Of a stretch of DNA of 8,451 nucleotides, positions 6,882-8,451 are shown one piece after another. The translations under genes and the position numbers were made by a program. The notes under the pieces are model-generated. The model had not been told where the DNA came from, did no database searches, and worked only from the letters and a program-made list of their open reading frames with translations. Position 1 is the stretch's first letter, and each line of letters opens with the position of its first letter. Origin of the DNA: a virus (Duplodnaviria; Heunggongvirae; Uroviricota; Caudoviricetes); IMG/VR virus record IMGVR_UViG_2548876857_000001, positions 1 through 8,451 of that record; one strand, written 5' to 3'.

Positions 6882-7345
6882 GCAGAGTAACCGCGATTAT
6901 CTCCGCTCTGGTTATCTGCATCATCGTCTGCCTGTCGTGGGCGGTCAATCATTACCGTGATAACGCCATCGCCTACAAAGAACAGCGTGATAAAAAAGTC
7001 AGTGAGCTGAAGCAGGCGACCGCCACCATCGCTGACATGCAGCAGCGTCAGCGTGATGTTGCTGCGATCGATGCAAAATACACGAAGGAGTTAGCCGATG
7101 CGAAAACTGAAAATGAAACTCTGCGCGCTGATGTTGCCGCTGGTCGTAAGCGCCTGCGGGTCAATGCCAGTTGCTCCGCAGCCGTGCGTGAAGCCACCGG
7201 ACCCACCAGCATGGATAATGCAACCAGCCCCCGACTGGCAGACACCGCTGAACGGGATTATTTCACCCTCAGAGAACGGTTGATGACGATGCAGAAGCAA
7301 CTGGAAGGGGCGCAGGAATATATCCGCACCCAGCGCATTAAGTAG
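6878..7345 (+). CDS. Rz: Rz i-spanin (inner-membrane spanin subunit)
   Basis: ATG 6878 overlaps the endolysin stop (ATGA). N-terminal TM segment ([18 protein letters not shown]) followed by a charged coiled-coil-like periplasmic domain; position after R. Confidence 0.8.
7098..7283 (+). CDS. Rz1: Rz1 o-spanin (outer-membrane lipoprotein), embedded in Rz in the +1 frame
   Basis: Entirely within Rz in a different frame. Product [22 protein letters not shown]... has a lipobox (VVSAC) and Pro-rich mature region ([22 protein letters not shown]) resembling lambda Rz1 as recalled. Confidence 0.8.
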
Positions 7346-7366
7346 CTGGAGAAAAAACACGAATCT

Positions 7367-7729
7367 GTGGTTTTTACTGAGCGCGGTGTACACGGTGGAA
7401 CATATGGCGGGAAGTTTGTTGCTTATGATTATGCAGCATGGCTAAACCCCGGATTTAAATATGCAGCCTATAAAGTCCTGGATGACTACTTCACCGGAGA
7501 ACTTCAGCATCGCAACAGCTTAAGTGCGCAGCTCAATATGAAGTGTCATGAGTTTGATCAGAAAAAAGATATGGCGAGCTTCTGTGGACAAGGGCTGGCG
7601 GCATGGCGCTATACGAAGCCAGTGTTGGTCGCTGAGATTAACTCCCGGGCTAACCAGCTGCAGATAACGATCCCCGGGCTGTCCGGTATTTGCCGGTATG
7701 AAATTACCGGAAGGCGCGGTCGTTACTGA
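7367..7729 (+). CDS. Hypothetical protein; possibly a 5'-truncated KilA-N-like remnant
   Basis: 120-aa ORF with GTG start and weak RBS. N-terminus GGTYGGKFVAYDYAAWLNPGFKYAAYKV resembles the C-terminal conserved block of KilA-N domains (G.W.HP.LA..FA.WL.P.F) without the preceding half of the domain. Assignment is tentative. Confidence 0.35.
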   Translation: MVFTERGVHGGTYGGKFVAYDYAAWLNPGFKYAAYKVLDDYFTGELQHRNSLSAQLNMKCHEFDQKKDMASFCGQGLAAWRYTKPVLVAEINSRANQLQITIPGLSGICRYEITGRRGRY

Positions 7730-7784
7730 GTAAGAGCAGGCATTACAGCAGCCCTTCACTGAGGGGCTGCGATAATGTGAGGAA

Positions 7785-7823
7785 TAAAAAACCGGCAGGG
7801 GAAATCCATTGAAGATTTGCCGG
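7785..7823 (-). terminator. Minus-strand intrinsic terminator (orphan; no clear minus-strand gene upstream)
   Basis: On the + strand: ATAAAAAA (7785-7790), then stem CCGGCA (7792-7797) / TGCCGG (7818-7823) with possible inner pairing AAATC/GATTT. On the minus strand this reads as a GC stem followed by TTTTTTAT. Confidence 0.5.
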
Positions 7824-7989
7824 TGGCAAAAGATGGCCATGCTTTTAACCTTAGTAGCAGAGCTACGGAGTTCAACAACGACCGTCGCCGTTATCTTGCT
7901 GAAAGGCGTTTCAATGATTTTCATCAATTTATTCATCAGCAATGGTGATAATCACTCTCATTTTGGCGGGTCCTTCCGGTGGGGTGGCC

Positions 7990-8180
7990 TGCCACGGGGC
8001 GGGAGCGTCGCGGAAAAAGGCTAGTTTTTGAAATTTCATTCGTCATCACCACCACTGTAATAGATTGATATTACAGTGGTTTTATTTTTATGGTGTCGAT
8101 TTTGATTGTTTTTTGTTCATCACTAACACCGTTTGCCTAAAGTTGTTCGCAAGATGCATGTTTAAAACATTCTGGAGCGG
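7990..8180. other. cos site region (cosN-like core followed by a cosB-like region) upstream of the small terminase gene
   Basis: ACGGGGCGGGAGCGTCGCGG (about 7994-8013) parallels the lambda cosN core ACG|GGGCGGCGACCT|CGCGG as recalled; downstream TTTTTGAAATTT and TTCGTCAT blocks also resemble the lambda left end. Lies directly upstream of a Nu1-family gene. Confidence 0.55.
8052..8079. repeat. Perfect 11-bp inverted repeat with 6-bp spacer inside the cosB-like region
   Basis: CCACTGTAATA (8052-8062), GATTGA, TATTACAGTGG (8069-8079), followed by TTTTATTTTTAT (8080-8091). Seen directly in sequence. Confidence 0.7.
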
Positions 8181-8182
8181 GT

Positions 8183-8451
8183 ATGGATCGAGAGTTAAAA
8201 AATCTGACGCTGAATATCAGTCAACTGGCGGCACTGTCAGGTGTACATCGCCAGACTGCTGCGGCAAGGCTGCAAAATCTACCCGTTGCAGGGGGGCATG
8301 AAAGCAACCTCAAGCTTTATCGGGTGGTTGATATTGTGTCGGCATTTCTGGCATTACCACCGCCGGTTGCAGAAGGCGAAATGGACGCGCATGAGCGCAA
8401 AGCCTGGTATCAGTCTGAACGTGAGCGTCTTAAGTTCGAACAGGAAACGGC
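8183..8451 (+). CDS. Terminase small subunit (Nu1 family), 5' partial; continues beyond window end
   Basis: ATG 8183 preceded by GGAGCGGG. N-terminal HTH-like segment (LNISQLAALSGVHRQTAAARLQN) followed by GG...LYRVVDIV aligns in pattern with lambda Nu1 (QLADIFGASIRTIQNWQ...GGGKGNEVLYDSAAVIKWY) as recalled. Location immediately after the cos-like region. Confidence 0.65.
   Translation, partial: MDRELKNLTLNISQLAALSGVHRQTAAARLQNLPVAGGHESNLKLYRVVDIVSAFLALPPPVAEGEMDAHERKAWYQSERERLKFEQET

Follow-up and report, generated by a model that had tools for sequence, protein, structure and literature searches.

A lambda-like cos site with a variant predicted cohesive end and a candidate IHF site in an Escherichia coli lambdoid prophage

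Genomic context of the cos region

The window, the whole stretch of DNA analysed here, comprises 8,451 bp and corresponds to positions 1 to 8,451 of IMG/VR record IMGVR_UViG_2548876857_000001 (Caudoviricetes). Its right-hand part carries a Q antiterminator gene (5313–5831), a P21-type holin gene (6169–6384), a lysozyme gene (6384–6881), an Rz gene (6866–7345) and a gene encoding an ORF11CD3 domain (7367–7729), all of which are located upstream of the cos region. In an E. coli chromosome that is 99.8% identical, PGAP called no gene between 7730 and 8182. The 5′ part of a gene encoding a DUF1441 protein, which phage records list as the small terminase, occupies 8183–8451 on the + strand and is cut by the window end.

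The same region is found in phages that have been deposited as genomes of their own. Phage phi458 shares 99.8% identity with the window over 7900–8451 and 100% over 7955–8200, and the cos region is present at 95–100% identity in phi458, mEp460, Ayreon, and vB_EcoS-569R4. Phage Ayreon originated from pond water and was isolated on E. coli K-12; the authors of its genome were unable to locate cos, and let the record begin with the terminase gene. Among 5,426 complete E. coli genomes, 2,157 (~40%) match the 552-bp region, and 1,470 contain at least 80% of it.

The earlier note had assigned the gene downstream of the site to the Nu1 family, an assignment that has to be given up, as the full-length phi458 protein matches only DUF1441 (PF07278, E 3e-41, 141 bits) and not Phage_Nu1 (PF07471), a family that lambda Nu1 matches with 333 bits in the same Pfam comparison. 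In phi458, the large terminase gene directly follows the small terminase gene, and its product contains both GpA_ATPase (E 9e-72) and GpA_nuclease (E 1e-85) domains. Alignment with hhalign placed residues 9–60 of the small terminase (LNISQLAALSGVHRQTAAARLQ...LKLY) in register with residues 2–55 of Nu1, which form its winged helix-turn-helix, with an E-value of 0.0025 and a probability of only 12%. A profile search of PDB sequences with the small terminase alignment returned a weak helix-turn-helix match (YbaQ, E 0.13) and no Nu1, and a single-sequence AlphaFold model of the 89-residue fragment, with a pLDDT of 55, was too poor for a fold search. A literature search for DUF1441 together with terminase found only genome notes. 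The DUF1441 small terminase probably holds the place of Nu1 and works alike, while falling outside the Nu1 family by the profile test.

cosQ, cosN and the predicted cohesive ends

The 7-mer GGGTCCT at 7968–7974 (+ strand) is identical to the cosQ of lambda and precedes the predicted top-strand nick by 22 nt, compared with 23 nt in lambda. In relatives, cosQ reads GGGTCCT or AGGTACTCC. Both cosQ and the CG pairs that flank the nicks are conserved in lambda-like phages (Feiss, 2015, PMC4669245). A Fur-box-like palindrome lies 7–8 bp upstream of cosQ, with 16/19 matches to GATAATGATAATCATTATC in lambda and 14/19 in the window (7941–7959); at 15/19 or better, it occurs in about 16 of 50 Enterobacterales loci. 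A literature search found no link between Fur and cosQ.

Positions 7992–8013 read CCACG-GGGCGGGAGCGT-CGCGG, in which ACG occupies 7994–7996, the 12-mer 7997–8008, and CGCGG 8009–8013. The equivalent in lambda is TTACG-GGGCGGCGACCT-CGCGG, and the lambda record (NC_001416) starts with GGGCGGCGACCTCGCGGG and ends with ...GGGTCCTTTCCGGTGATCCGACAGGTTACG. The lambda cosN with which the earlier note had drawn a parallel agrees with NC_001416, and the site is not identical to that of lambda. Eight of the 12 overhang positions match, and the left half, GGGCGG, and the CG flanks are the same. From lambda to the window, position 7 changes C>G, position 8 G>A, position 9 A>G, and position 11 C>G, which bears out the expectation that the sticky ends would differ at about positions 7–12. 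The putative cosN, CG-GGGCGGGAGCGT-CG, thus spans 7995–8010, with nicks predicted by lambda homology and record ends at 7996/7997 on the top strand and at 8008/8009 on the bottom strand. Cleavage there would leave the 12-nt 5′ overhang GGGCGGGAGCGT (7997–8008).

The ends of two phage records coincide with this prediction. Phages cdtI (AB285204) and Tritos (OV696610, linear) have records that start with GGGCGGGAGCGT and end with ...CCACG, so that the first base is the equivalent of 7997 and the last base the equivalent of 7996, which is exactly the predicted top-strand nick. Analogy with lambda may itself have guided the choice of these record ends, and the Tritos/LF82 paper is silent on the termini and on how the ends were set. 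Among the viral contigs that were scanned for the cosN 28-mer, none begins at the nick, all matches being internal to prophage-derived contigs. We infer the nick positions from homology and depositor practice. The claim that the locus is a cos site with sticky ends unlike those of lambda is supported by four lines of evidence, namely the homology to lambda cosQ-cosN-I2, the downstream gpA-type terminase, the record ends, and the identity with phi458.

The 12-mer takes many different forms among relatives. Across 54 loci that have either a lambda-like cos or a small terminase of the DUF1441 type, 30 distinct 22-mers were collected, in which positions 4–12 are conserved at 37–80%, while neither the flanks nor the leading GGG change, a constancy that was partly imposed by the regex anchor and with which the raw sequences of relatives agree. 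Examples of variant 12-mers include GGGCGGCGGACT, GGGCGGCGCGCT, GGGCGGTAGCGG, and that of Fels-1, GGGCGGCAGCGG. In lambda-like cohesive ends, bp 7–12 are known to vary commonly, with differences at 9 and 12 in N15 and at 8, 9, and 11 in Gifsy-1, and the lambda mutation C11G has no phenotype (PMC4669245). Since natural variation at bp 7–12 has already been published, the variant cosN is not new, and its difference from lambda becomes less notable. A full-text literature search for the 12-mer returned only unrelated mammalian papers; GenBank has contained a phage record that opens with this exact sticky end ever since cdtI was deposited. To the rule, already published, that a lambda-like cohesive end may vary freely in its right half, the window adds a natural example.

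The I2-like segment and the R-like elements of cosB

Immediately after cosN, CGCGGAAAAAGGCTAGTTTTTGAAATTTCAT parallels CGCGGGTTTTCGCTATTTATGAAAATTTTCC of lambda. The I2-like segment AAAAAGGCTAGTTTTTGAAATTTCATTCG (8014–8042), which is rich in A/T tracts and leads from cosN to cosB, aligns with lambda bp 18–46 (GTTTTCGCTATTTATGAAAATTTTCC). In the description by Feiss and colleagues (PMC4856287), I2 measures ~33 bp and is an A-tract region that is statically bent. The I2-like segment is nearly invariant among close relatives, defined here as the viral-contig loci, about 60 in number, that encode a small terminase 100% identical to that of the window. The segment that the window has in common with cdtI and Tritos extends from cosQ to ~8031 (~+35).

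Three putative small terminase sites follow. These R-like elements, each only 8 bp long, were picked out by visual inspection. The R3-like element TCATCACC (8043–8050, + strand) lies 47–54 nt from the nick and is invariant in close relatives. The R2-like element GGTGTCGA (8092–8099, − strand; 96–103 nt from the nick) is TCGACACC when reverse-complemented, and repeats the R3/R1 motif in inverted orientation with 6/8 matches; it is likewise invariant in close relatives, and is the counterpart of a GATGTCGAA block that is conserved across relatives. The R1-like element TCATCACT (8117–8124, + strand; 121–128 nt from the nick) is a direct repeat of R3 (7/8), and its equivalent in relatives is a GTTCA(C/T)CATCAT block that adjoins the start codon. 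Relatives from Citrobacter, Klebsiella, Kosakonia, Salmonella, and others share this three-element layout, as CATCATCAT ... ATGATGTCGAA ... CACCATCAT, with ATGATG(TCGAA) as the middle element, and the equivalents in Gifsy-2 are CACTGAAAA ... TTTTCAGTG.

The complex cosBs of lambda-like phages, including that of Gifsy-1, have the order R3-I1-R2-R1 with R2 inverted (PMC4669245, PMC9026076). The same sequence pattern is seen in the window, where R-like elements in +, −, and + orientation have a perfect IHF consensus between the first two.

A candidate IHF site at the position of I1

The candidate IHF core TATCAATCTATTA (8058–8070, − strand), located 62–74 nt from the nick, matches the consensus WATCAANNNNTTR without mismatches, and is the putative equivalent of I1. 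In the whole window, 0.35 matches to the IHF consensus would be expected. The T-run TTTTATTTTT at 8080–8089, which the terminator scan also scores as a terminator tail, is on the minus strand an A-tract situated 9 nt 5′ of the core. This layout resembles that of the H′ site of lambda attP, with which it shares the A-tract, a spacer of 8–9 nt, and TATCAA-NNNN-TTR; the minus strand of the window reads AAAAATAAAA-CCACTGTAA-TATCAATCTATTA, as compared with AAAAAA-GCATTGCT-TATCAATTTGTTG in H′, with spacers of 9 and 8 nt, respectively. From this resemblance, the T-rich run is taken to be the A-tract of an IHF site. The contexts differ, H′ serving recombination and the window site packaging, and IHF binding to the window is predicted.

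Position and strand of the consensus are kept among relatives. In a species-level set with one genome per species, the consensus is matched perfectly at 12 of the 51 anchored loci and with at most one mismatch at 26, compared with expectations of ~0.06 and ~0.5, although this enrichment is not an independent-sample statistic, as the compared loci are homologous and the consensus is degenerate. All of these matches begin at +62 to +64 on the minus strand. Among four cosB types that are found on an identical cosN, a TTGAT core is equidistant from the nick in three, and the fourth reads TTGAA there. In lambda, the best I1 match is on the same strand as the IHF core of the window. An IHF recognition element was one of three options that the earlier note had offered for the palindrome region, and is the one favoured by the perfect consensus and by its constant position and strand.

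The palindrome and its alternative explanations

The IHF core covers the spacer of an inverted repeat and reaches into the inner end of each arm. The repeat consists of ACCACTGTAATA (8051–8062) and TATTACAGTGGT (8069–8080) separated by GATTGA. The arms had been described as a perfect 11-bp repeat with a 6-bp spacer; the perfection and the spacer hold, but the arms are 12 bp long (100% complementary). The T-rich run noted after the palindrome is present as well, with TTTATTTTTA following the right arm. This is the sole perfect inverted repeat with arms of at least 12 bp and a spacer of at most 20 bp in the 8,451-bp window. Such repeats occurred at a mean of 0.023 in 300 dinucleotide-preserving shuffles, and at all in 5 of the 300. 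LexA and CRP boxes do not account for the arms, as inspection gave the wrong spacing both for a LexA box (CTGT-N8-ACAG; N16 here) and for a CRP box (TGTGA-N6-TCACA; N10 here). A promoter-like match at 8065–8094 was no better than expected from shuffles.

The perfect palindrome is confined to few loci, even among close relatives. It is found at 12/12 pairs in 9 of 62 of them, and most of the others keep 8–11 Watson-Crick pairs; a C at 8053 occurs in 10 of 59. The most frequent polymorphisms fall at the NNNN positions of the consensus (8062 and 8063) and in the outer arms (8053, 8078, and 8079), whereas the IHF consensus positions and the T-run show zero variation among about 60 close relatives. 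One locus with an identical small terminase (L087) has only 5/12 pairs left, and has retained both the IHF consensus and the T-run. In relatives at 55–86% small terminase identity, no such palindrome was found. Because the consensus and the T-run are constant while the arms vary, the functional unit would be the IHF site rather than the palindromy. We conclude that the palindrome consists of DNA around and partly within the IHF core, that it is lineage-specific, mostly imperfect and largely dispensable, and that it is not a separate conserved element. Palindrome and T-run together look like an I1-equivalent IHF site, to which binding is predicted.

The palindrome could instead be the recognition site of the small terminase itself, with a dimer seated on the arms as inverted half-sites (R3 and a close inverted partner), in which case a hairpin made by IHF would not be needed. 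The left arm adjoins the R3-like block, and its CACCACTGTAA resembles the Gifsy-2 R elements CAGCACTGAAA (R3) and CGACACTGAAA; it is the closeness of CACCACTGTAA to Gifsy-2 R3 that makes half-sites in the arms conceivable. In Gifsy-2, moreover, an IHF-like site is enclosed by the R elements, which make up a 9-bp inverted repeat, the DNA-binding domain of lambda Nu1 is a tight dimer (PMC4669245), and the core CTGTAAT...ATTACAG is retained in most close relatives. Against this, a 100% identical small terminase is found with arms that differ at up to 7/12 pairs (L087), the outer-arm positions 8052–8054 and 8078–8079 are the most polymorphic sites of the region, and the invariant blocks TCATCAC, GGTGTCGA, and TCATCACT all lie outside the arms. 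Relatives at 68–86% small terminase identity also keep the R-like blocks without a palindrome, and recognition of the arms is therefore considered unlikely. On the RNA level, the hairpin and U-run might act as an intrinsic terminator on the + strand, or as another RNA hairpin, that would keep transcription in the lysogen from running on into the terminase genes and, in lytic growth, be overridden by Q-modified polymerase. The terminator scan calls a stem of 12 pairs, four of them G-C, with a 6-nt loop and a T-rich tail, the fold has an energy of −18.8 kcal/mol (z = −4.3), and a Q antiterminator gene is located upstream (5313–5831). With G-U allowed, 91.7% of stem cells pair across 34 distinct close variants, and 5/6 transition-type changes lead to G-U rather than A-C on the + strand. 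Such a proportion of paired cells (92%), together with the wobble compatibility of most one-sided changes on that strand, leaves room for an RNA hairpin. The stem is nevertheless A/T-rich (only 4/12 pairs are G-C) and the U-run interrupted. Covariation in the 34 variants does not exceed unconstrained drift (1 compensatory pair; 13 and 8 of 500 shuffles reach the observed values), and the stems of several relatives are worth only −0.6 to −7 kcal/mol. The T-run is kept in L087, which lacks the stem, and the other cosB types and more distant relatives have no equivalent hairpin. Furthermore, one terminator-like site was found, compared with 1.2 expected from shuffles of the region, and Rfam at a permissive threshold gave no match in 7300–8451. 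Taken with the conservation data, these results make an RNA function of the palindrome distinctly improbable.

A last alternative concerns the whole site, which could be a decayed, non-functional cos relic of a defective prophage, as the window derives from a prophage, and defective prophages are numerous in E. coli. Every subsite is intact, though, and the 95–100% identity of the region in the genomes of phages phi458, mEp460, Ayreon, and vB_EcoS-569R4, as well as its presence over at least 80% of its length in 1,470 of 5,426 complete E. coli genomes, make decay hard to believe.

Nucleotide diversity around the palindrome is locally raised. The 50 bp at 8047–8096 have a mean diversity of 0.097, compared with 0.032 at four-fold degenerate sites of the adjacent terminase genes and 0.012 in the remaining non-coding cos DNA. 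Ten sites in this interval have at least three alleles, and loci with identical 1,250-bp flanks differ within it at up to six positions. A quite unlikely explanation is that 8047–8096 is a fast-evolving cosB quasi-palindrome, which would either be a mutational hot spot (e.g., through template switching from one arm to the other) or be under diversifying selection by which the IHF-dependent start of packaging is tuned; such tuning may take place among co-resident lambdoid prophages or satellites that have one terminase in common. If this were true, the perfect palindrome of the window would be one allele of a polymorphism.

A model for the packaging site

The region 7968–8130 is very likely the cos of an E. 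coli lambdoid prophage of the mEp460/phi458/Ayreon type, working in the manner of lambda cos, with the palindrome as sequence that flanks the IHF site. In this model, which is built from homology, subsite layout, conservation pattern and record ends, the DUF1441 small terminase would bind the R-like repeats of cosB, namely TCATCACC at 8043, the inverted copy at 8092–8099, and TCATCACT at 8117. Host IHF would bind the core TATCAATCTATTA (8058–8070, − strand) and the A-tract (8080–8089), and the resulting bend would make the first two R-like repeats face each other. The complex could then place the lambda gpA-type large terminase on cosN, ~47 bp away, where it would nick the top strand at 7996/7997 and the bottom strand at 8008/8009, producing 12-nt 5′ ends of sequence GGGCGGGAGCGT. 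The predicted role of cosQ (7968–7974) is in the termination of packaging.

Comparison with known cos systems

Compared with lambda, the order and spacing of the subsites are alike, and cosQ, cosN (CG, 12 bp, CG), and the A/T-tract I2 align base by base. The first R element is found at 47–54 in the window and at 50–65 (R3) in lambda. Both have a minus-strand IHF consensus between R3 and an inverted R2, and a gpA-type large terminase thereafter; the start codon of the small terminase is at +187 in the window and at +191 in lambda. The two differ in that 8/16 bp of cosN are two-fold symmetric in the window and 10/16 in lambda (as counted from the sequences), the R elements of the window are unrelated to the CGTTTCC motif of lambda, and its IHF core is ~17 bp nearer cosN. 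The small terminase of the window is a DUF1441 protein, whereas that of lambda belongs to Phage_Nu1.

Further counterparts are found in Salmonella Gifsy-2 and Fels-1 and in the Stx phage VT1-Sakai, which have DUF1441-type small terminases (40–56% identical to that of the window), gpA-type large terminases, and a lambda-like cosN with changes in its right half. Gifsy-1 resembles the window in its R3-I1-R2-R1 cosB and in its cosN, where positions 8, 9, and 11 depart from lambda (PMC4669245, PMC9026076). Relative to Gifsy-1, Gifsy-2, Fels-1, and VT1-Sakai, the window adds the change at position 7, other R sequences, and the 12-bp palindrome, which is absent there in that form. Phages cdtI and Tritos have a different cosB (GGCGGCGGCA...) and a small terminase that is only 42% identical to that of the window; both nonetheless have an IHF consensus at nearly the same distance, at +64 as compared with +62, and that of cdtI is perfect and on the same strand.

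Lambda and phage 21 provide the paradigm of one cosQ-cosN with a different cosB and small terminase. A similar situation is found in E. coli prophages, in which the identical 28-mer GGGCGGGAGCGTCGCGGAAAAAGGCTAG (cosN and I2) is joined to at least four unrelated cosB sequences: those of the window, of cdtI/Tritos, of a pair of loci (L089/L166), and of a fourth locus (L187). The small terminases of the first three types are 42–100% identical to that of the window. The specificities of lambda, 21, and N15 were measured (PMC4669245), whereas those of the present types are predicted from sequence.

Implications

The cos of the window is real but ordinary, and involves no new mechanism. As with lambda and phage 21, one cosQ-cosN-I2 module has been combined with several cosB/small terminase modules. 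The genome ends and the layout of the packaging site, at the level of prediction given above, are fixed for the lambdoid prophages of the mEp460, phi458, and Ayreon types, a group that is very common in E. coli.

Nucleotide diversity within cosB

The cosB of the window contains a local hot spot of nucleotide diversity at 8047–8096, and the same stretch stands out in the related cos loci L006–L085. Mean pi across these 50 positions is 0.097, compared with 0.012 for the remaining non-coding cos DNA, and it also exceeds the value at four-fold degenerate sites of the small and large terminase genes TerS and TerL (0.032, n = 192). Segregating sites account for 18 of the 50 positions, as opposed to 91 of 1250 in the flanks, and 10 sites carry three or more alleles. 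Loci whose 1250-bp flanks are identical differ at up to six positions within 8047–8096, and all four gametes are present for 28 of 78 site pairs. Candidate causes of this diversity are template switching at the quasi-palindrome, gene conversion over short tracts, and selection.

Mosaic junctions and alternative forms of cos

In the window and in loci L159–L238, cosN is flanked on either side by mosaic junctions, located at approximately 7947–7996 and 8031 in the window. The sequence to the left of cosQ is unrelated even among close relatives (pi ~0.55–0.6). To the right of an identical 28-mer spanning cosN and I2, at least four different cosB types are found among 80 contigs; these occur in about 46, 23, 9 and 1 of the contigs, with one contig unclassified.

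Among the relatives L090–L150, cosQ takes one of two alternative forms at the same place, GGGTCCT or AGGTACTCC. In the Pasteurellaceae loci, cosB is much shorter (96–127 nt from the nick to the start codon), contains only one CATCATCATC block, and has no IHF consensus at the position that it occupies in Enterobacterales (+62 to +64). This organisation is reminiscent of the ‘simple’ cosB of phage N15.

Palindromes upstream of cosN

A Fur-box-like palindrome is located 2–8 bp (mostly 7–8 bp) 5′ of cosQ in the window (7941–7959; 14/19 matches to the Fur consensus), in lambda and in several relatives (L091, L104, L105, L110, L112–L119 and L155). The lambda sequence, GTAGATGATAATCATTATC, lies just 5′ of cosQ and agrees with the consensus at 16/19 positions. 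Scores of at least 15/19 were obtained for approximately 16 of 50 lambda-like cos loci of Enterobacterales, while control coding DNA scored 7–11/19. By the same comparison, the Pasteurellaceae loci lack such a palindrome 5′ of cosQ. The literature searched contained no joint mention of cosQ and Fur.

Further upstream, the ORF11CD3-domain gene (7367–7729) is followed, 19 nt past its stop codon, by a G+C-rich hairpin, GCAGCCC-TTCACTGAG-GGGCTGC (7748–7770). The hairpin was not called by the terminator scan because it lacks a T-run.

Metagenomic contigs with the same cos

The same cos, together with a TerS 100% identical to that of the window prophage, is present in two metagenome-assembled genomes (MAGs), one labelled ‘Bacillota bacterium’ (L086; JAEWTL010000010.1) and the other a soil ‘Proteobacteria bacterium’ (L087; JAGTSE010000010.1). 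In each case the contig probably derives from E. coli, through contamination or mis-binning.
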